DNA from: Paecilomyces variotii
Lineage: Eukaryota
Assembly: GCA_004022145.1 (NCBI GenBank)
Contig: RCNU01000018.1
DNA: 64,000 bases
Direction: 5' to 3' (one strand)
In this document: piece by piece, positions 37,869 through 64,000 of the stretch
Layout: the number at the start of each line of letters is the position of its first letter
How positions within the stretch are numbered: the stretch's first letter is position 1
Position numbers and translations under genes: made by a program
Notes under the pieces: model-generated
What the model was told of the DNA's origin: nothing
Databases searched by the model: none
Seen by the model: the letters and a program-made list of their open reading frames with translations, nothing else

Positions 37869-39473
37869 ATGGCGGAATTCGTGCGGGCCCAGATCTTTGG
37901 GACGACCTTCGAGATCACTAGCAGGTATGGCGGATGAGCGCGCGGCAGGAAATTCACCTGGATGAGGAACTGGAGGAGTCTGACTGTGTGTTCAGGTATA
38001 CGGACCTGCAGCCGGTGGGCATGGGAGCTTTCGGTCTCGTCTGGTATGCTCAACTTCCATCCTGAGGAGGGAACAGCCGGGGAATCGCCAGAGATACATG
38101 TGGCTGACAACGACACGGCGAACAGTTCAGCCAGAGACCAATTGACCCAGCAGCCCGTGGCCGTCAAGAAGATCATGAAGCCGTTCAGCACACCGGTTCT
38201 TTCGAAGCGGACATATCGAGAACTCAAACTATTGAAACATCTGCGACATGAAAATGTCAGTCGTGCAATCTCCGCGCAAACGGTGGCCTGTCACTGACAA
38301 CGAACAGGTTATCAGCTTGAGCGATATCTTCATCTCCCCTCTCGAGGACATGTAAGTTTCCCCGATCGGTTCCTGCCCTGGGTGTGTTTGAATCCCCGAT
38401 TGACGGATGATAGTTACTTCGTTACGGAGCTCCTGGGCACCGACCTTCATAGACTTCTCACATCGAGACCGCTCGAGAAACAGTTTATCCAGTACTTCCT
38501 GTACCAGATCCTGGTATGTCGATCATCCATGTATTTCGAAACCTGTCTTTGGCACGTCTTCTGACGCGGCGACAGCGAGGTTTGAAATACGTCCATTCCG
38601 CCGGTGTGGTGCACCGTGACCTCAAACCCAGCAACATCCTCATCAACGAGAACTGTGATCTCAAGATCTGCGATTTTGGTCTGGCGCGGATCCAAGATCC
38701 GCAGATGACCGGCTACGTTTCCACGCGATACTACCGTGCCCCGGAGATCATGCTCACGTGGCAGAAGTACGACGTCGAAGTCGACATCTGGAGTGCGGGC
38801 TGCATCTTCGCAGAGATGCTCGATGGCAAGCCCCTCTTCCCCGGAAAGGACCATGTCAACCAGTTCTCCATCATCACCGAGCTTCTCGGTACCCCACCTG
38901 ACGATGTGATCAAGACGATCTGCAGTGAGAATGTGCGTATTGGTCGACGTCTTTGCCTTCGACTTTTCAAGCAGCTAACGTCAATTTCTTTTCCTGTAGA
39001 CTCTGCGATTCGTCCAGTCCCTGCCCAAGCGGGAACGACAGCCGCTGGCCAACAAGTTCAAGAACGCTGACCCATCAGGTATGCATATCCTTGGCAATCA
39101 GTCGAGCGGTTTTACTCACGTTTCCCTAGCCGTCGACCTCCTGGAGAGGATGCTGGTCTTCGACCCCAAGAAGCGAGTGAGCGCGACGGATGCTCTTGCA
39201 CACGAATATCTAGCCCCCTACCACGATCCTACCGACGAGCCTGTCGCCGAAGAGAAATTCGACTGGTCTTTCAACGATGCTGATCTGCCAGTTGACACAT
39301 GGAAGATCATGATGTATGTTTAGTGGAAACCAAAATTATTTAACTTTTCGTTCAGGCTGACCCGCTATGACAGGTACTCGGAGATCCTCGACTACCACAA
39401 CATTGACCAGACCGGCCTCGACGCAGGCCAAGTTCCACCCGAACCTGTGGACCCCACCGCCCCAGTGGTATAG
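37869..39473 (+). CDS. sakA: HOG-pathway stress-activated MAP kinase, many introns
   Basis: [61 protein letters not shown] (TGY loop), YHDPTDEP docking site. Confidence 0.98.
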
Positions 39474-40469
39474 CTTGCGAATGGGATTTCTGCAGATACG
39501 GTGGGTTGAAGGCAGTTGTTGGTGTTGATGGATAACGATTCCCGTTGTATACACGGGATCCTGCTTCTCTTGTCCATGTAGCGTCTAACATCTACAGTGG
39601 GCACGGGGACTTTTGACGAGTTCTTTCCCGCCTCCACATGTTGGTCTTCGGTGGTCGCTTCATTTTTTACGGCGTGTTCAGACTCAGGCGGCGATGCGGG
39701 TTATCTACTTCTCAGATCCTTCAACGTCGATACACGTACACGGTATATGGATCTCCTTCGTTTCTTTTTTTGGTCGCGGAAAAGCGGGATGAATAGGATC
39801 AAGCTTCGTCGGAATCTACAGTTTACGTGGCACGTTTCGAATTTCAAGACTGATGCAGTAGACGATGTTAGAGCAGAAGAGAGAAATGTGTAACTTTAAT
39901 AATTCCATTTCCTCAATGGCCAGGGCCAGCGCACCAAGATAGAGCACGCATCTCCAGATCTCGAATACCATGTCGGGAAATGGCCTATTTTTGACTATGA
40001 GACCCGATGACGTTCCTTGGCGGTGGACCGCGCTGATTGACATGATGCAAGCCATGCCAAGATGGCGGCGATCAGGATGGAGTTTTACCAGTAGATACCT
40101 AGCTCATATGGGGAAGGTGGTCAATAATAATATGGCAGTATCCGTGGCTAGGGGGCTCTGCCGCAACAGATACATCTCCCCCCCAGTAAATCTATCTCCT
40201 GGGCATTTCTTGCTTTTCTCTTCAGCTGTGAATTTTCCAAACCGCCTAGATAGCTAGGTAGATAGATGGACACTGCCACTGAGGGTCTCATTCACGGGGT
40301 TTCTGCCATATAAGTAGTCACCGCCTGCCATAGAAGTCCTCGGAAGTCAACCGATACTCGGATCTTTCCTTCAGTTAATTGTTTCTTCACTTAATTGCTT
40401 CCATTGCTTCCTCAGTTAGTTAATTGCTACGAAAACTTCCCTTTTATTAAAGATAGATATCCTCTCAAT

Positions 40470-41498
40470 ATGACTGTCAACGTACCATCCTCTCCAGACT
40501 CGAATGGCTCCGCCCAGACTTGGTTCTCTCAAATCAAAAGGGATATACAAGCAGCAACTGAATATATGGAGCTGAGATATGATAATATCTCAGTAGAAAA
40601 GGGAGCGTTATTGGTAGAATCACTTTCGGAAGATCCTGACATTGAGAGACGCAATACGCGGTAATGATACCAGCAGAAATCTCCGAAAGATGTATCGTTT
40701 ATTATTATTATCTAAATTTAACTGATAATACTTATCAGATTCAGTTATAACTCGTTAATCAAAGTGCTCAACATTTTAATCATGCCTACAGAAGTCCATG
40801 ATGTTCATCAACATTGGATCGGCGAAGAAAAACTGGATATGGTACTTGCCGGATTCTTAACTCCCGCAGAAGGTTATGTGTTGACACTTGGAGTTGGCAC
40901 AAGTAGGCTATTTATATCTCTCTGATTCGATACGTATATTAACTGATATTGGATACCTAGTTATTGATCATTTCAGGGGACAGTATACCGGTTCCTTCAA
41001 GGCACCTGATATGCTTATACGTTATGAGCTTCAACCACTACCTAGTATCGCGGTAGAATCCGGATGGGCAGAATCACTGCCTCGTCTCCACGCAGACATA
41101 CGTCTGTGGCTTGAGGGTGGACAGCCAGATGTTTAACTTGTCATTGTCCTCTGTTGGACTAAGATGTCTGGAGCGCCCCTGCAACGCATAAAAGGGATCT
41201 TCGAAATATGGGAACGAGATGCTGGTAACTCTCCGTATCTTAAGTAAAATGGGGTAAGTTAAGAACCACCACACAACTGAGTAAGGAATTGATGATAACA
41301 ATAATATATTGATAGGATATCTTCCTAACGCTGGCAAATGCAGCTACCCAGGTAATACCTGTAACTCGCGCCCAGCTCTTCGGGCCGGTATATGTATTAC
41401 CTGGGAGGAATGGCACAGATGTATGGAATCTCTGCGTTGACATATTGCGGACTTGGGCGAGGAAGGCCATCGTTAAAATGGGTTATGTACCGGCGTGA
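40470..41498 (+). pseudogene. Disrupted copy of putative PD-(D/E)XK nuclease gene (exons 40470-40660, 40739-40902, 40961-41253, 41316-41498)
   Basis: Clear paralog of 54898-55909 with identical intron positions; in-frame TAA at 41134-41136 and 41245-41247. Confidence 0.85.
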
Positions 41499-41664
41499 CT
41501 ATCCTCCCTTCAACTGCGTATTTGTGTGATTGGACCATAATTTTCTTCATCTTCTCGATGTCTTGCCAAAAGTTTCCATCGACATGATGTATGTTGGAAT
41601 GGCGAGGGGAGCGCCCGGACTACATGATAATTTGAAATGGTAACGCCGTACTTTGGGTTATCTT

Positions 41665-41890
41665 TACCACTTTGGCCTGAGAACAAGTTTGTTTTTATAT
41701 TAGCTCTCATTGCCAAATTGAAATTTGACTAGATAGACTCTTCCAACAATCTACCTACTCTTGATTGATTATGAGATAGATAGATACCTAAGATACCTAG
41801 AATAGCCAATTGTCTTGTTCTTCTCTGCCCAATCAGCGCTATCGGATCCCTCCCTAAAGACACCTCACCGCCTAGAAGGTACCACCAATG
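41665..41890 (+). repeat. Conserved 3' non-coding block shared with 54697-54890 (inverted)
   Basis: GCCAAATTGAAATTTGACTAG and ATAGCCAATTGTCTTGTTCTTC...AATCAGCG.TATCGGATCCCTCC..AAGACACCTCACCGCCTAGAAG...CCACCAATG present downstream of both gene copies. Confidence 0.9.
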
Positions 41891-42120
41891 GTAAGCTCCC
41901 ATTTTCCGAACTGCCAGCCGGTCACGACTGAGTGTAGCCCGCATTGATGCTTTGTCCAACAACTAAGGGAAAAGGACCAAAAAAAAGGAGGTCATTGTCA
42001 AGGTGGACTGGATTTGCAGAAAACAGGGTTCCAGGTCCCCTCCAAAGACAAGGGAATAAAGCTGGATGTCAGTCTTTCTTTGATTGTTCTACATACATTC
42101 TTGGGTGAAGGGCCTCGACC

Positions 42121-45182: not shown

Positions 45183-46440
45183 ACAGAAAGGAGAATGCCT
45201 CAATTTTGGAAACACAACCTTCCACGAGGTTCATAGTAATGCATTATTTCGATTTTCTCTTCTTTCTCACTTTTTCTTTACGCTCCTCCTGAGGCGTGTG
45301 TGTATGCTTTCATACAAGATATTATTCATAATTATATCCCCCTTGACAATTCACAGTAATTTATTCATAACCTTTTTTTTCTATTTTCTCCCCCCCCCCT
45401 TTCATTCTTCTTGTTAATGTTAATGTTGATGTTGATGCTGATCTAGATCTGACTTTCTTTTTTTGTACATTGTACCATACATTAGATACTTTGTCCCCTG
45501 CACTTGACTCTATTTAGTCCCAGCAGGAACTATCCATACATATTATATAACCTACCTCATCTACCTTGTTCAGTTTATATATCATATCATTACTATACCA
45601 TACACTCATCAACATTCTGATCGAAGAAAGCTAGCTTCTGTTACTGTAATGCGATCGACCTCCCCCTAGCCAGTAGGATTCACCAACGATACGACACGAT
45701 ACGATACAGATAGATAAGCTGGACTATGTTCTAATGGGATGCTGTTACGGCTGCTTTGCAGGATTGGTGCGCGCGTGGATGACTAGTATATACGTTAATA
45801 TTATATTATAGGCAAGGAGGGCCAGGGTCAAGATCAGAATACGGGGCCTAGATAGTTTGAATGGAATCAATGGATAGTTTAGACTACCTTGTTGCCGTGG
45901 TACTGTGCATACTTTTATGCTCGATACTGGGGAACGAGAAGAAAAGAAAAGAAAAAGGGTTTAGATATAAAATCTCCCTTTCGTGATCCCATAACAAAAA
46001 TATGAATCTGAGATGGCATATTTCTTTTTCTTCTTTTTTAAAAACCCACAACCTAATGTTACGTGATAAGTAGTACTATAGTAAATATGTATGATGGATT
46101 GATTGGGCTTCGGTTTGGATAGGCAAACCGACCCCAACAACCGACACGAACCGATCCGTTCTTGCCTTGCCTTGCTTTGCTTTAGCATGTCTTGTCCAAT
46201 GAGTTAAAGAGAAACCTTGGAGAGAGAAAAAAAGGAAGCCATCTGGGCTAATTCGCCGGGAATGTCATTTCAGCGCTTGGAAAAGAAAAGGAGAAACAGA
46301 GCAAAACCAGCAAGGGAATAAGCGACATTAGCAAACAAAAGGAGATCCGTTTCATCCGCCCTGCCGATGTGGCCTACAACAGGCGTATGGGACTATCACC
46401 AACGCTAAGAGAAAAACCAGCAGAAAAGAGTAAAAGTGAA

Positions 46441-54048: not shown

Positions 54049-54696
54049 CGGCAGTATCTGAATGATTACCAGACCTGTGAATGCGTGCAATGATATGTTG
54101 ACTGGACGTGCAATTCTCAACAAAGTGTCCATTTGAAGACCATGAGTTCATTTTTTACAATTTTCCGTTCTTAGGAAGTTTCTGGTGTATGTGTCATATG
54201 TCCATGAGGGTTGTGTAAATTATAGAGCAACATAGAACTTCTCTTGATGTACGATAGGTTTGCTTTTCCATGTGGGCTTAAGTATGCCTGTTGAAAACGA
54301 TACTCTTTGTCAGATGAGAACTAAATAATGAAATCCTATTGGATACTCTGATGATTAATTGATATTATAACAGTATTCACGAGAATGCACTTGCAGAGAC
54401 CTCTACTCAGCTGGAAGTCTCCAGTCCTAGATCTTGATATAGTTCTCTTTTAGCCTATTCAGAATGACTGAAAGAAATGGCAAGGGCTTAATTCCCCCGC
54501 CATCGCTACCACGGACAGACAATACACAAGCTGGTTCTCTTTTTCAGGACGTTGGCAGGTTACACTATGTATGGGATGCATGTGTATGTACACTACTGTT
54601 TTCGCTATTTGCGTGAGGTCATTCGCGCCAGAAAAGCAGGCTGGTTATTGTTCTAGTTGAAGTAGAAATCTCAATTTTGCTCAAAGATGACAAGTT

Positions 54697-54890
54697 CATT
54701 GGTGGCTTCTTCTAGGCGGTGAGGTGTCTTCGGGAGGGATCCGATATCGCTGATTGGCCAAGGAAGAACAAGACAATTGGCTATCTCATACTGTAGAGCA
54801 GATTGTGAAAAGGGTCTGTTACTAGTCAAATTTCAATTTGGCGGCAGCTAATAATAATACACAAACTATCTTCAGGCAAAAAGTGAAAAG
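54697..54890 (-). repeat. Conserved 3' non-coding block, second copy
   Basis: Reverse complement matches 41665-41890. Confidence 0.9.
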
Positions 54891-54897
54891 ATGACAG

Positions 54898-55909
54898 TCA
54901 CGCCGGTATGTAACCCATTCGATTGATGGCCTTGCTGGCCCAAGTCCTCAGTAGGTCAACGCGGAGATTCCATATATCCGTGCCATTCTGCCCAGGAAAT
55001 ATATGCGCCGGTCCGAAGAGTTGGGCGCGAGTAATGGGTATTACTTGGGGACCGAGATTCGCCGGTGGAGGAGGAAAGATAGCCTATGATTATTTCTTTA
55101 CTTAGTTTTCTGGTTCTTAAGTATCCACTGGAATAATAACTTACCCCACTATCCTTGCAATATGGCGTATTAGCGGTATCTCGCTCCCAAATCTCATATT
55201 TTCCTTTGACGCGTTGGATGGGTGTGCCTGAGATCTTGGACCAGCGGAGGATGATGACAAGCTGGACATCTGGCTCTCCGCCCACAAGCCACAGCCGCAT
55301 ATCCGCGTGGAGGCGGGGCAGTGATTCTGCCCACCCGGACTCTATCGCGATGCTTGGCAGTGGTTCAAGTTCATGCCGTATGAGCATGTCGGGATCCTTA
55401 CGTGAACCGGTGTATGGTCCATTGAGATGGTTGATGGCTATCCACTATTAGCAAATATACGTATCAAATCAAGGGGATATTAGCCTACTTGTACCAACTC
55501 CGAGTGTTAAAGCGTGACCCTCTGCGGCAGTCAAGAAACCGCCAAGAACCATATCCAGTTTTTCTGAAGAGATCCAGTGTTGGTGCACATCGTGCACCTC
55601 AGTCGGCATTACTAACACGTTCAGAGCCTTTACAAACGAGTTGTAACTGAATCTAATAAGCAACATTAGTTAAGTTAAACAAGGTATATATCTTTCCTGT
55701 TTCTGGTTGTAATCTTACCGCGGGCGGTATCTTTCAACGTCTGAGTCCTCTGAGAGCGAATCAACTAGTAAGGCTCCCTTGTCTTCTGAGATATTCTCGT
55801 ATCTCAACTCCACCGATTCACTTGCTGCCCGTATATCGCTCTTAATTTGATAGAACCAAGTCTGGGCAGAGTTATTCAACTCTGCAACGGGTGGTGTGCC
55901 AACAGTCAT
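54898..55909 (-). CDS. Putative PD-(D/E)XK (Uma2-like) nuclease, intact, 277 aa (exons 55909-55719, 55652-55489, 55437-55145, 55083-54898)
   Basis: Exon lengths 191+164+293+186=834 nt, no internal stop, GT-AG introns; motifs MPTEVH, K-x-PD, PSIAIESGWAES..RL..D..LWL resemble the Uma2-like restriction-endonuclease fold. Confidence 0.7.
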
Positions 55910-55916
55910 GATACAA

Positions 55917-56033
55917 GATGTTGAAGGTGAGGGATGTCCAAGGCGCCGGATGTTTAAGGTGACAGATATTCAAGGTGAGAGAGAGATGTTTGATGTGAGA
56001 GATGTTCAAGGCGACGGATGTTCAAGGTGACAG
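55917..56033. repeat. ~17-bp tandem repeat x7 (GATGTTCAAGGTGACAG-like)
   Basis: Degenerate copies directly upstream of the nuclease ATG; period not a multiple of 3. Confidence 0.8.
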
Positions 56034-56074
56034 CGCTTCTTCGTATTGATTATGTAATCCAGGTGTTTTTTGGG

Positions 56075-56450
56075 GAGCCGCCTCTCTGAGGCTGGCTAAT
56101 ACCAGCTCAGGAACAGCAACGGAAGATCGTGCAGTCAATGAGAGGGTTTGAGGAGCCGCCTCTCCGAGGCTGGCTAATACCAGCTCAGGAAAAGCAACGG
56201 AAGATCGTGCAGTCAATGAGAGGGTTTGAGGAGCCGCCTCTCCGAGGCTGGCTAATACCAGCTCAGGAAAAGCAACGGAAGATCGTGCAGTCAATGAGAG
56301 GGGTTGAGGAGCCGCCTCTCCGAGGCTGGCTAATACCAGCTCAGGAACAGCAACGGAAGATCTCGCAGTCAATAAGAGGGGGTAGAGGAGCCACCTCGCT
56401 GAGGCTGGCTGATACCAGCTAAGGAACATCAGTGGACGGTCTTGCAGTGG
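56075..56450. repeat. 78-bp tandem repeat, 4 near-identical units plus 1 diverged
   Basis: GAGCCGCCTC starts at 56075, 56153, 56231, 56309, diverged unit at 56388; partial degenerate copies at ~56619 and ~56723. Confidence 0.95.
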
Positions 56451-56612
56451 ATGAAGGTGACTCAGTGGACGAAGGTGATTCAGTCGATGAAGGGTCATTC
56501 GATGAAGGGTCACTCGATGAAGGGGACTCAGTGGATGAAGGGGACTTACTCGATGAAGCAGACTCAGTTGATGAAATGGGACTCAGTTGATGAAGGGACT
56601 CGGTTGATGAAG
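56450..56612. repeat. 15-18-bp tandem repeat (GATGAAGG(T/G)GACTCAGT(G/T)), ~9 copies
   Basis: Repeated GATGAAG..GACTCAG units. Confidence 0.85.
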
Positions 56613-57345
56613 GGAAGCGAGCTGCCTCACTGAGGCTAGCTGCCAAAACAAAGAGCAGCCACAGACACTCACAACTGAGACCAGCCAGAGAGGAGAGAGA
56701 AGAGGATGGATGAGAGGGGTTGGAGCTGCCTCTCAGAGGCCAGCTGCTGGCTCTCTTGGATGTGGGTAGATGAGAAGACTGATGAGCTGGGGAGAAAAGA
56801 GGAGGAAAAAGAAAGAGGAGAAGAGGGGGGGAGGAGGAGTCTTAAGTAGTGATTGGGCTCAGTCACCCCGGTGAGAGCATTGGTGAATATCAACAGTGAA
56901 AATGGAAGGTGCGCAGGCTGCCCGCCTTTGCCGCAGTTGAGTCACATAGTAAAGATACTCCTCATTCGTATACGAAAGCCTTTAATAATTTTTGCACATG
57001 TATATAGTCTTACTTGAATATTGAGGAGGGTATTTACAAAAGGACCCAGCAATAGGAACAAAGGCTGCCATTTCCGCCAAACTCAGCATCGTCACGAAGA
57101 CAATTCCGCCGACAATCGCGTACGCAGTCAGCATCGACGCCGGTCCTCCTGTAGCCAAGGACTTTCATTGCGCCGTGAGCACCTCGCCAATGAGATGGCT
57201 TGCAAACAGGGGTAGTTAGAATGTAAGGAAAAGAGATAGGAAAAGAGACCCGTAAAGAACAGATGCCCGCCAAACAGTCAAGGTGAACAGGAGATGTAGG
57301 ATAAGAACATGGAGGGACACTGAATTTACATTTCACGCTTGCACG

Positions 57346-60431: not shown

Positions 60432-63400
60432 TTATGTAGGAACCCGGGAGATCGCATGATCATAGTCATCATTTGGGACGCCAAGGTTCTGTTCGACCAA
60501 AGTGCTACTTCCCATGACTTTGATAAGTCGTCCACTCTGGCGGTGGTAATCGACAACATTTCTCCATGCCAAAAAGCCCTGTCCAGCACCCGGCTTGCCT
60601 GTTTCATGCATCCTCTCATCACCAACCACGATCAGACCATTGCGTGCACGACTGAGCGCGACACACTGCCGTTGGCGGTCCTGGACGAACCCCAGCCCGT
60701 AACGGCCTCCAGGCCGAGTTGTGGATAGAATTACTATCTCTGACTCATCCCCTTGGGAGGCGTCAACACTGCTGATTTTGACATCCTTGAAGCCCAGTTT
60801 GCGCATCAGGTCTGCCAATATGCGCCGTTCATCGCTGTAAAATGATAATATTAGGATGTACTGTTGCGGACAACCTAACCCACAGAACCAAGCGACCCAT
60901 TCTCCGATGAAACTCACATATTCAGGATTGAAGAGAGATGTTCCATTTCGTCTTCTGAAGACTGTTGAATTCTCAACCGAAACGAAGAACGAAGCACCGG
61001 CATAACAATGATAGCGTTGTACCATGTAGTTCGAGAATGTGTCGGACAGCTTGCCCTGCTTGTAGGAAGGGTTGTTGACCAGTTTCTGTTCATAATACTC
61101 CGCACTGACGAAGTCTGCAATATGGGGATGCATGCGATACTGGACTGCCAATTGAACGTCAGGTACCCCCGACTGAAGCATCCTTTGGAATAACGACACC
61201 TTCTCGGAAGAGTAGGCTTCGTTCATGTGCAAGGATGTGACAGTCGGCGGCAATTGCGCGATGTCACCGCTCAGGATAACTTTTTTGAGGTTTGAAATAT
61301 AACGCGAGATGGCGTTGAGGCAGGTGCTCTCTGGCATCTGTGATGCCTCTTCAACGAGAACAAATTCCGGCCTGAAGCCACGTAGCGACTTGCGGCTAGC
61401 GGTTGACGCCGTGCATAGAATTATCTTCGCATGCCCAAGGTAGAATTCTTGGAGGTCTGTCCAAGCTCGCCGAAGCTGCTGCACGAAACTCGCGTGGAGA
61501 GGCTGGACATCCTCTTCTGACCTATCTGTACCAGCACCTGCCCTTATCGGGTCTGCCTCGCCACTGGCACTCACCGGCTCAGCGAACGCTATGCCCTCTC
61601 TCAACAGACATTTCTGCCATGTGAAGTAGTTCCAGATTAATGTCATCTCATCACGTTCTTCATTCGTTGTCTGTGGCCAATTGGAGCCGAGTTGTGCCGC
61701 CCGTTCCATTCTGGAGATGATTCTCGAACCGAGTGAAAAGTCGCTAGACGCACTGACCATATCCTGTACTGACTGCTTGATAACCTTAAGTAGCTCTGGC
61801 TGGATGCCGAGCTGGAGTAATTCCATATGCGCAGCATCGAACTCTGCGCTTCCAAGGGACGATTGATTCAGTGCTCCTGGCGCCATCTGCATTTCGCTCG
61901 TTTCGTGAAAATCGGTACCCAGCCTATAGATACGCGATGTTTCGAGCGGCGGCTGGCTGTTTGGAAATCTGAGGGTAATTCGTCTGGCTATGACATCTAA
62001 CCCGAAGTTTGAGCCACAGACGATAAGAAGAGGATGTCCTTTTTGGTAGCAGTACCGAGCGATCCCCTCTGATACTGTTGTCTTTCCGGTCCCAGGAGGA
62101 CCGGTGATCAGTGTCATGAAACTGCGATAGGAATCCCCTATGGTGAGAGCTGAGCGAATTGCGTCGACTTGTTGAGGATTCCATTTCCGAGTAATTTCGT
62201 GCAAGACAGCGTCGGCCGACTGGTCAAGATGTCCCTCACGTGGATAAAGCTTGATAACTTTATTATCATGACCGAGTAGCAACCTCTTGAGTTTGTTGTC
62301 CCTGGGTATATTGTAATCACGGTTGCCATACATAGCATAGCGGATTGCAGTACGAATCTGCTTGTATACCGGATTTGGATTCCCAAAAGTCGCCCAACCA
62401 GCCAGTTTGAGGATACGCCCCGCAGATTCCAGACGCTGAGGCTGTCTTATTCTGATACATATCATATTCGCTGGTAGCTTTATATCATCCGGAACCTTCG
62501 GGGATGCTACCACGACTCCAGTCCACCTGTTCTTATCGCTCACTTGAACATTTGATAAGCTGGGTTTCTGAAGTTGGGATGCACGTCTTCCTTCTGCGAT
62601 AACAACCGGGGTCCCTGGTTCCGGGAGAGGAAGCACCTGTTCATCATCCGCAGAGTCACTGGTGACATTAACTCCCAGAACTCCATAGAAATATTCATCT
62701 ATGGCAGGCGTTTGGGTTCCGTGGACCAAGGAAACTGGCCATAGATCGAATTCGTAATAACGATTGAATGTTTTGACGTAGTTTCGTTGTTGACAGTTAG
62801 CCTCTCGAAGAAGGCCGATTGTTTTGATAGCTTCATACTCCCTCTCGTTGATGAATGTAAGAGGAGCCTGCGGTGTAAAACTGAGTATCTGTTGTGGAGT
62901 ATCGAATTTAGGTGGTTGGTTTGGCCAGCCAATTTGTCGCCTGCGATGGTGGAGTTGGATGTTATTATCTGCCAACGTGGGGATGTCTCGGATCACTCCA
63001 AATTCCCCCGTGTGCACCTCGTACGTGCAGTCGTAGAGAGGATACGGGGGCGGCGTCCTCTGGGGCATTGCAGACATCAATCTCCAATTGTCGTACAACC
63101 CAGCACGACCTCGTGTCCTCACATGGACAGATCTCTCGCTTCGAGTAAGATCTCTCAGGCGGTTCAGAGCTCCTATTTGGCTTTCGTGAAATCCAGATAG
63201 TGCCGTCTCTGGCACGTCGAAACCGTAGCATATGGGAGGGGCGTAATGGAACCAGCGGATCTGATGGCAATCCCCATTTATTTGCGCTTGACATGCTTGG
63301 GCACTTTGAGCTATGTGCTGTACGGACTCAAAGGTCACACTGGTCAGCCTTGAAGAAAATGAAATTGACGGGTTGGGTGATTCCTTCGTAGCTGGGTTTC

Positions 63401-63791
63401 TCTTGTTATCAAAGCCCTGAGGATTCCAAGCTGTCCAAACCAAGGAGAAAGAGAGATTACGCCTTTCGTCATTCGGGTGTTTCAGTTGAAATGATAAGTG
63501 AAAATGAGGAATCTCGGTCCCGCCGCGGATTGAGAATCTCAAAGTAGCATCCGGGGTAGAAGGAATGAGTAGCCTTCCAGAAAGGTCTGGACCCCCGTAA
63601 GTGATCCCACAGACCATCTCTTCACTGAAAGCTTGGAAGCCGTGGAGGGTGGGTCTTCCACCTCGATGTTGTTGAAGACGTTTCCTGTTTTTCGTGAAGA
63701 GATCTGGAGGAACATTCCATTGCATGTTGTACCAGTTTAGGTTATGTCTGAGTTCTTGGGAAAAATCGATCACCGCAGGTGGTTTGTCCAT
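60432..63791 (-). CDS. Upf1/DNA2-Nam7-like superfamily 1 helicase (AAA_11/AAA_12), intronless, 1119 aa, unrecognised N-terminal ~500 aa
   Basis: Q-motif WNPQQVDAI, Walker A GPPGTGKT, CGSN, ILCTAST, VEEASQ (II), GDIAQLPPT (III), QYRMHP (IV), SVDASQGDE (V), VALSRAR (VI). Confidence 0.88.
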   Translation of the reverse strand: MDKPPAVIDFSQELRHNLNWYNMQWNVPPDLFTKNRKRLQQHRGGRPTLHGFQAFSEEMVCGITYGGPDLSGRLLIPSTPDATLRFSIRGGTEIPHFHLSFQLKHPNDERRNLSFSLVWTAWNPQGFDNKRNPATKESPNPSISFSSRLTSVTFESVQHIAQSAQACQAQINGDCHQIRWFHYAPPICYGFDVPETALSGFHESQIGALNRLRDLTRSERSVHVRTRGRAGLYDNWRLMSAMPQRTPPPYPLYDCTYEVHTGEFGVIRDIPTLADNNIQLHHRRRQIGWPNQPPKFDTPQQILSFTPQAPLTFINEREYEAIKTIGLLREANCQQRNYVKTFNRYYEFDLWPVSLVHGTQTPAIDEYFYGVLGVNVTSDSADDEQVLPLPEPGTPVVIAEGRRASQLQKPSLSNVQVSDKNRWTGVVVASPKVPDDIKLPANMICIRIRQPQRLESAGRILKLAGWATFGNPNPVYKQIRTAIRYAMYGNRDYNIPRDNKLKRLLLGHDNKVIKLYPREGHLDQSADAVLHEITRKWNPQQVDAIRSALTIGDSYRSFMTLITGPPGTGKTTVSEGIARYCYQKGHPLLIVCGSNFGLDVIARRITLRFPNSQPPLETSRIYRLGTDFHETSEMQMAPGALNQSSLGSAEFDAAHMELLQLGIQPELLKVIKQSVQDMVSASSDFSLGSRIISRMERAAQLGSNWPQTTNEERDEMTLIWNYFTWQKCLLREGIAFAEPVSASGEADPIRAGAGTDRSEEDVQPLHASFVQQLRRAWTDLQEFYLGHAKIILCTASTASRKSLRGFRPEFVLVEEASQMPESTCLNAISRYISNLKKVILSGDIAQLPPTVTSLHMNEAYSSEKVSLFQRMLQSGVPDVQLAVQYRMHPHIADFVSAEYYEQKLVNNPSYKQGKLSDTFSNYMVQRYHCYAGASFFVSVENSTVFRRRNGTSLFNPEYVSFIGEWVAWFCGLGCPQQYILILSFYSDERRILADLMRKLGFKDVKISSVDASQGDESEIVILSTTRPGGRYGLGFVQDRQRQCVALSRARNGLIVVGDERMHETGKPGAGQGFLAWRNVVDYHRQSGRLIKVMGSSTLVEQNLGVPNDDYDHAISRVPT

Positions 63792-64000
63792 TATGTTGAT
63801 GTGGAAGTGGGGAGTTCACGGTCCATAAGATAGGAGAGGGGAGGAATGGGAAGAGAGAGGGAGGGGTCGAGCAAAGGTTTTAAAGCAACGGCTTTGGATA
63901 ATGAAGCGAGGAAGAAGGGAACAAGAGAAAGTGAAGTATTGGAAGGGGAAAGAGATGGCAATTCCCTACAGTTGGGATTTCAGGGAATCAGAGGTAAGTG

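Follow-up and report, generated by a model that had tools for sequence, protein, structure and literature searches.

The genome of Paecilomyces variotii contains a dispersed family of intron-bearing genes whose protein has a predicted Uma2-like nuclease fold, and one copy lies in an insertion that is absent from other strains. We propose that the family consists of dispersed, stand-alone conflict (killer-type) nucleases spread by host break repair, a reading to which, taken as a whole, we give a probability of roughly 0.45. Its mobility part, in which copies would spread as passengers of host break repair, appears probable to us.

Two copies of a four-exon gene in one 64-kb window

The window, the whole 64,000-nucleotide stretch of P. 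variotii DNA that was analyzed, carries two copies of the gene in inverted orientation, as a preliminary description of this DNA had reported, and these align at 73% DNA identity (1,049 columns, E 2e-168). Copy A lies on the + strand at 40470-41498, with exons at 40470-40660, 40739-40902, 40961-41253, and 41316-41498. Copy B lies on the - strand and is read from exon 1 (55719-55909, aa 1-64) through exon 2 (55489-55652), which encodes H84 and a swappable segment of aa 89-118, and exon 3 (55145-55437), which encodes K132, P134-D135, E151, E156, and D164, to exon 4 (54898-55083), which includes the stop. Exons 1-3 have the same lengths in both copies (191, 164, and 293 nt), the last exon measures 183 nt in copy A and 186 nt in copy B, every intron runs from GT to AG, and the introns of the two copies are 77-84% alike. 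Exon 1 is identical at 41 of 64 amino acids, and the earlier impression that later exons are closer held up (43/54 in exon 2, 69/98 in exon 3). Both copies had been described as genes of ~277 aa; four exons are found in each and copy B is intact at 277 aa, but copy A is broken by two in-frame TAA stops in exon 3 (41134-41136 and 41245-41247) and carries RIP-like C>T changes. Intact alleles of copy A are present in other strains.

The spliced product of copy B equals, when compared by inspection, the database protein P0003, annotated as a hypothetical protein of P. variotii. All three copy B introns are seen as joints in X7, an RNA-like sequencing run whose RNA status is a guess of the software. 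A contig of the same run spans the window from the last sakA exon to the exact donor of copy A intron 1 (39374-40660), which can be read either as read-through or as merged transcripts. The genes beside A and B are conserved housekeeping genes: Pfam hits to Avl9, Mit_KHE1, and End3 agree with the neighbors named earlier (avl9, a K+/H+ gene, and end3), and further hits are to Cullin and to a kinase domain at the position of the gene that had been called sakA, which we take to be the correct name.

Copy B lies in a 2,469-bp insertion

The unit carrying copy B had been placed at 54697-56900. Copy B is indeed inside this interval, but the ends were wrong: the insertion occupies 54695-57163 (- strand, 2,469 bp), and a 7-bp direct repeat at its edges had been overlooked. 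We compared four of 24 listed runs, the RNA-like X7 and three DNA-type runs (X12, X13, and X14) that were picked for their low word share (40% of words) and of which two come from one study. In each of the three DNA-type runs, one contig has 54694 directly next to 57164, with zero letters between, giving a clean empty site for one insertion event, that of copy B. These runs also have 43 letters of the window (45780-45823) swapped for 11 others.

The direct repeat reads CAATGAA. Its target copy (57164-57170, - strand) ends in three letters that are also matched by the donor of the adjoining permease piece, and its second copy (54695-54701, - strand) begins with the five letters that end a 3′ tail shared by A and B. 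Random breakpoint pairs share at least 7 letters in 0.04% of cases (0.0004).

From its 5′ end, the insertion is made up of a permease piece, a 68-bp piece, decayed coding-like repeats, the nuclease gene, and the tail. The first of these is a captured amino-acid permease exon piece (57031-57163, - strand; PF00324, E 4.8e-7, passing the cut-off) that is 55% identical to permeases of the same genome, in which a DNA search found no donor for it. In X13 and X14, DNA matching the piece is found in inverted orientation ~4.4 kb beyond 58878 on the right side. The window itself has a 1,127-codon AAA_11/AAA_12 helicase ORF to the right of end3 (60435-63815, - strand), and since X13 and X14 seem to have a permease at about the distance of this ORF, the region may be a variable island. 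The captured 68-bp piece (56876-56943, - strand) matches, with 91% identity, an ORF end at C10:252306-252373, ~9.4 kb away, which adjoins a solo-LTR-like repeat. A weak search for full-length forms of the captured upstream gene piece found none, and an Atlas lead for it was to C2H2 with a score under 0.9. The degenerate coding-like tandem repeats (56069-56615, - strand) consist of a 78-bp unit present 4.6 times together with 18- and 15-bp units, and for 56303-56550 within them, X13 and X14 have matches on other contigs as well. Consistent with the earlier account, we found no transposase, TIR, LTR, or poly(A) within the insertion; its longest open frames reach at most 186 aa, and a tyrosine recombinase, the trait of Starships and Cryptons, is absent from it.

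An ordinary old duplication, with the empty-site strains having lost copy B by deletion between the 7-bp repeats, would account for part of this structure, as microhomology-mediated deletion also leaves a 7-bp repeat and a dS of 0.88 marks A and B as old paralogues. However, insertion is strongly favored over deletion by the start of the permease match, which falls three letters into the upstream repeat: a 5′ boundary within three letters of the start of that match would be rare for a random deletion. In addition, among protein records copy B is found on 3 contigs against 25 for copy A types. We therefore regard old duplication as highly improbable.

The copies lack ends of their own

The 3′ block common to A and B that had been noted earlier is identical at 80 of 88 positions and contains three CCAAT motifs. 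The B copy lies at 54697-54784 (- strand) and the A copy at 41802-41890 (+ strand), ~290-375 bp upstream of the likely avl9 start, which likely places it in the avl9 promoter region. The tail is 91% identical, against ~74% in exons 1-3. This conservation and the 7-bp direct repeat at a clean empty site are what would be expected if a genuine minimal transposon kept its 3′ terminus constant and duplicated 7 bp of its target, or if a tyrosine recombinase of the Crypton or Starship type, for which crossover cores of 6-8 bp are typical, moved a passenger in trans. We consider such an element improbable: a profile of the tail matched A and B only, both among 22 family loci and genome-wide, there is no TIR, and the 5′ end of the insertion is permease coding sequence. 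The introns are also similar between the two copies, the copy A tail carries five small deletions (41783-41820) in X13 and X14, and the tail would be bound to end at the junction anyway if B was cut there. We rejected the tail as a family-wide terminus, as it is not common to the other family loci, and likewise a transposon with fixed ends, given a patchwork insertion that has no TIR, LTR, or transposase and a tail that is not family-wide.

Other known classes of element fit no better. A TIR DNA transposon or MITE would have terminal inverted repeats, which the insertion lacks; the direct repeat at the empty site is a trait of such transposons but can also be explained as microhomology. Helitrons begin with TC, end with CTRR after a hairpin, insert at AT, and make no duplication, whereas the insertion ends in AG and AA with a 7-bp repeat and its tail folds like shuffled sequences. 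A structured RNA or DNA tail is similarly unsupported (folding against shuffles, z 0.84 and 0.56). Retrocopying, including LINE or SINE activity, does not agree with introns at aa 64, 119, and 216 that are kept across loci or with the absence of poly(A). The idea of a unit with defined ends and its own mechanism of movement thus did not stand, as the tail is limited to A and B and the 5′ end is host-gene DNA. Together, the restricted tail, the borrowed 5′ end, and junctions that can be read as microhomologies point to host break repair.

Break repair could also be provoked by the nuclease itself, if it cut at or near a CAATG-like site and repair then copied the gene in, as with a homing endonuclease that has no host intron. 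CAATG is found at the target, at the tail end, and at the end of the captured 68-bp piece, and the flanks bear repair-like scars. The 3′ flank of copy A holds a captured 156-bp piece (41515-41670, + strand; 87% identical to C1:3445119-3445276) that is absent from B, and copy A may have an old pair of CAATGG motifs, with the one at 39914-39919 (+ strand) as a possible but weak upstream partner of 41886-41891, as 0.26 such motifs are expected by chance. Against self-copying, no empty site for copy A was found: it is filled in X12, X13, and X14, and the empty site had 0 matches in metagenome contigs, among which near genomes may be missing. Moreover, it is not evident how a protein translated in the cytoplasm could favor its own gene, and landing at fragile sites would by itself be expected to leave such scars. 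We view self-copying as unlikely.

At least 22 loci in the genome and relatives across fungi

A genome search gave 44 exon-level matches, from which 20 loci beyond A and B were fetched and modeled. The family, described as present twice, is so within the window, but the genome holds at least 22 modeled loci; about six further remnants make this number a floor. By our own classing, the 22 loci comprise 7 clean ones, 4 whose breaks are perhaps splice-site modeling errors, and 11 broken ones, the last being about half. The three intron positions are common across loci, with some loci lacking the first or third intron, and this supports the earlier view of a dispersed family copied at the DNA level with introns kept. 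A pair of copies at fixed positions, which would have reduced the case to ordinary duplication, is contradicted by this count and by the empty site of copy B in three runs.

The copies fall in several old lineages, and A and B group in a clade to which this genome contributes six copies (SH-aLRT 99 in a quick tree with no bootstrap). A profile search yielded 877 representatives at 50% identity (E up to 0.001), and among 20 relatives that were looked up, the named ones are fungal: Eurotiales, Onygenales, and one lichen fungus. No shared neighbor gene was seen in the flanking ORFs of family loci, and no antidote domain was found. In metagenome contigs, 117 candidate stretches contained 10 relatives, of which one is close (L107:91-600) and has introns at the same two positions; by eye, it is cut near its end by LINE ORF1-like sequence. 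No shared tail was seen by eye in the metagenome relatives (1,800 of 4,205 bases). The portions of the literature consulted describe the fungal family no further than one Uma2 Pfam hit in Trichophyton (PMC4102429), and the family may already be listed among CR-REases in an earlier survey.

Family loci have disturbed flanks

Self-repeats within 1.5 kb were observed at 11 of 22 family loci compared with 3 of 30 controls (p 0.003), an excess that may partly reflect intergenic space since the controls are richer in genes and GC. Two solo-LTR-like repeats lie near 7/22 family loci and 2/30 controls (p 0.027), a test that is biased in that these two repeat families were discovered from family flanks; in the reverse direction, 40 repeat-centered loci contained 3 family matches against 0.2-0.4 expected. 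Captured gene pieces adjoin A, B, and a third locus, L050, where 395 bp downstream (+80 to +470) reproduce, at 90% identity, the 3′ half of the gene at C10:61444; a control for such pieces is weak, with 1 of 2 candidates scored. At locus L044, a fold-back copy of the last exon begins 46 bp past the stop (140 columns at 73%). Taken together, the self-repeats, solo-LTR-like repeats, captured pieces, and fold-back copy indicate that, judged from sequence, family copies sit at break-prone sites.

The two repeats were characterized separately. The first, a 130-bp repeat (TGTCGG...CCAGA), lies at L042:2568-2697 and in at least 40 other places in G000, with a partial copy in the window at 1964-2008. 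It gave 41 matches from 80 candidates, most copies that were read have 5-bp target duplications, and 4 loci gave no Rfam match; it is like a solo LTR with a non-canonical 3′ end. We rejected it as an end of the family given its own target duplications and variable position. The second, of ~207 bp (TGTCG...CGACA), lies at L066:1331-1500 (C10:252135-252305) and ~40 other places. Direct copies of it stand to either side of loci L056 and L061, and it cuts short an ORF for which there is a C2H2-like lead. The direct repeats at these two loci were rejected as marks of an element, being copies of a common repeat, and movement of A or B by flanking LTRs was rejected because neither repeat is near them.

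Direct repeats other than these two are found on both sides of L049 (-230 and +279, 49 bp), L060 (-95 and +283, 39 bp), and L042 (-3079 and +304, 233 bp), and could be old long target duplications. We also observed a short repeat of 30-50 bp at L044 (+180 to +255), L042 (-1327), L058 (+46), and two other places, a RIP-like, AT-rich element bearing long inverted repeats on the upstream side of L050 (-1617 to -258), and, in the window, a 69-bp inverted repeat of 94% identity (2367-2435 and 2730-2798).

The protein has a predicted Uma2-like fold

Sequence searches of Pfam, NCBIfam, and PDB gave the protein no name, and the Uma2 HMM (PF05685) matched 0 of 94 family members at E up to 1. An AlphaFold model built from 94 homologues reached a pLDDT of 95.8, and three structure searches with it put Uma2/DUF820 first, in support of the Uma2-like PD-(D/E)XK fold suggested earlier from motifs and against the alternative that no restriction-endonuclease fold would appear. 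Among 48,161 chains searched, the best match was 1wdj (Z 14.0, rmsd 2.9, 169 residues aligned) and the second 3ot2 (Z 13.2), with rmsd values of 2.8-2.9 for Uma2 matches; the first named restriction enzyme followed at Z 8.4. The Foldseek search among the three matched Uma2 at E 1.8e-4, and the Atlas gave a TM of 0.56 to a bacterial Uma2 cluster, while one look-alike cluster carries PF05685 on 23% of its members. Besides the Uma2 fold, the 277-aa model consists of a small additional alpha/beta module at its N-terminus (aa 10-80). This module resembles R3H, Smr, and SirA folds with Z up to 6.8, which serves as a lead only.

The residues expected of the fold are largely retained. H84, K132, D135, E151, E156, and D164 are conserved in 83-96% of covering rows of the homologue alignment (H84 70/79, K132 83/93, D135 84/93, E151 90/94, D164 89/94), and the PD...E motif that had been pointed out earlier is thus confirmed at D135 and E151. 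The usual lysine two places after E151 is absent, with S, G, or W there (G153 in 88/93), and K132 might stand in for it. On the predicted model, we infer that the protein would cut DNA.

Selection, segment exchange, and RIP-like changes

The protein is under purifying selection, with dN/dS values of 0.20 for A-B, 0.19 for A-L042, and 0.09 for B-L042 (dS saturated for the last). Transposases that act in trans usually drift within a genome; low dN/dS between paralogues therefore argues for selection on each locus and requires a benefit tied to each locus. In the species, copy A is annotated on 25 contigs and the L042 copy on 24, and on these records both loci look fixed, which also suits a host function. 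A host-beneficial nuclease family for defense or stress, acting against transposons, viruses, or foreign DNA and undergoing birth and death in fragile intergenic sites, would explain the selection and apparent fixation, the splicing of copy B with no evident antidote, and the age and breadth of the family; the insertion of copy B would then be a one-off repair accident. However, half of the 22 loci are broken, the six-copy clade of A and B is a lineage-specific expansion in a species reported, in the part of the source consulted, to have few expanded families (PMC6300479), and paralogues swap one segment. Host defense is in our view a possible explanation, though a doubtful one. As the copies have no ends to recognize, both killing and host defense fit better than self-copying or a true transposon.

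The swapped segment was recognized in two comparisons. Two A-type alleles, P0033 and P0008, are A-like elsewhere while their aa 89-118 match protein P0005 at 26 of 30 positions and A at 16 of 30. Conversely, copy B matches P0005 in exon 1 (52/64) and A in aa 89-118 (26/30). Together these matches, read from proteins rather than DNA, show exchange of aa 89-118 between paralogues. Accession numbers hint that P0005 is encoded at another site near end3, as it lies seven, not six, numbers from A.

RIP usually hits both partners of a repeat; copy B has no RIP signal. Copy A differs from its intact allele P0013 at 17 residues, 11 of which can be explained by a single C>T or G>A change, 8 of them at CpA/TpG, with both stops included. 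RIP at CpA has been demonstrated in P. variotii (PMC6300479). Three records exist for the truncated A protein (P0012) and three for the B protein (P0003), their accession numbers differing by six, and this co-occurrence fits a scenario in which B exposed A to RIP; the three records that carry B may come from a single clonal lineage.

Relation to known systems

Poison and antidote isoforms of wtf are proteins of membranes, whereas the present family has a nuclease fold. The wtf genes form ~25 dispersed multi-exon copies in fission yeasts that are associated with solo LTRs, undergo non-allelic gene conversion, and possibly spread by circles (PMC9562144, PMC5478263). The present family likewise has dispersed copies with non-allelic exchange, on a protein-level reading, but most wtf copies are flanked by solo LTRs or 5S rDNA, compared with solo-LTR-like repeats at 7/22 loci here. 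In Podospora, the Spok genes have a PD-(D/E)XK domain needed for killing and show gene conversion between homologues, pseudogenes, and changing locations (PMC6660238, PMC9972908). The present protein is set apart by its description: it has 277 aa and has no kinase resistance domain, cysteine cluster, or large block, and none of 10 long homologues has the kinase that follows the nuclease at the C-terminus of Spok.

The same predicted fold is shared over ~165 residues with Uma2/DUF820/COG4636 (PF05685; 1wdj, 3ot2). Bacterial Uma2 proteins are described as stand-alone, expanded, rarely paired with antitoxins, and likely solo toxins (PMC2701414), and Uma2 is listed as bacterial (PMC3424549); the present family, in contrast, is eukaryotic, has four exons, and carries the extra N-terminal module. 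The CR (Crinkler-RHS) effectors of eukaryotes have REase-fold toxin domains of prokaryotic, transposon-linked origin (PMC5289972), but no header, NTPase, or kinase was among the Pfam matches of our family. Templated insertions by microhomology-mediated end joining contain pieces copied from nearby DNA at short homologies (PMC9779921), whereas the insertion here reaches 2.5 kb and unites multiple pieces with a complete spliced gene.

The family recalls wtf and Spok in its many dead copies, its polymorphic sites, and its swappable segment, and by analogy it would spread as these do while belonging to neither. Its behavior is much like that of selfish killer genes, which makes killing a candidate role; the poison or driver gene suggested earlier is consistent with the data.

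A model for spread and function

In the model that we favor, selection would keep a Uma2-fold nuclease at each locus as a conflict toxin, and the copies, having no ends of their own, would be carried when break repair copies or re-integrates patchwork segments at short microhomologies. The tail end CAATG and the permease start GAA together spell the 7-mer, so that the structure is possible without a transposase. Copy B may have arrived by microhomology-guided repair or as a circle. By the circle route, CAATG and GAA would overlap at one G, and one crossover with the 7-mer at the target would give the observed structure; alternatively, both ends of the insert could have annealed at a staggered break. 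The landing of copy B 14 kb away would then have drawn RIP onto copy A.

By analogy with known killers, the most likely role of the toxin would be the killing of spores or nuclei that lack the gene, with killing as the payoff and aa 89-118 setting specificity. Since copy B is spliced in an RNA-like run, its product would be no unconditional poison. We know of few fungal killer-gene families. A more specific version, which we hold to be speculative and unlikely, is that the family adds a third type to the fungal spore killers with multiple copies, a lone 277-aa nuclease with specificity in the helix at aa 89-118. The long isoform with the N-terminal module would then confer resistance and a short isoform starting at the conserved M79 would be the poison, with new sites reached across Eurotiomycetes via microhomology-joined patchwork segments.

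With diverged relatives in the hundreds, no fewer than 22 loci in a RIP-active genome, and a natural pair of carrier and empty-site strains, the family is open to direct tests of drive, toxicity, and mobility, and P. variotii can be crossed and transformed (PMC6300479). The family also illustrates a way for gene families to expand despite RIP: members that share ~73% identity or less survive, and the arrival of a new copy in linkage may be costly to its neighbor. If true, a role in conflict would be the first function for the Uma2 fold in eukaryotes.
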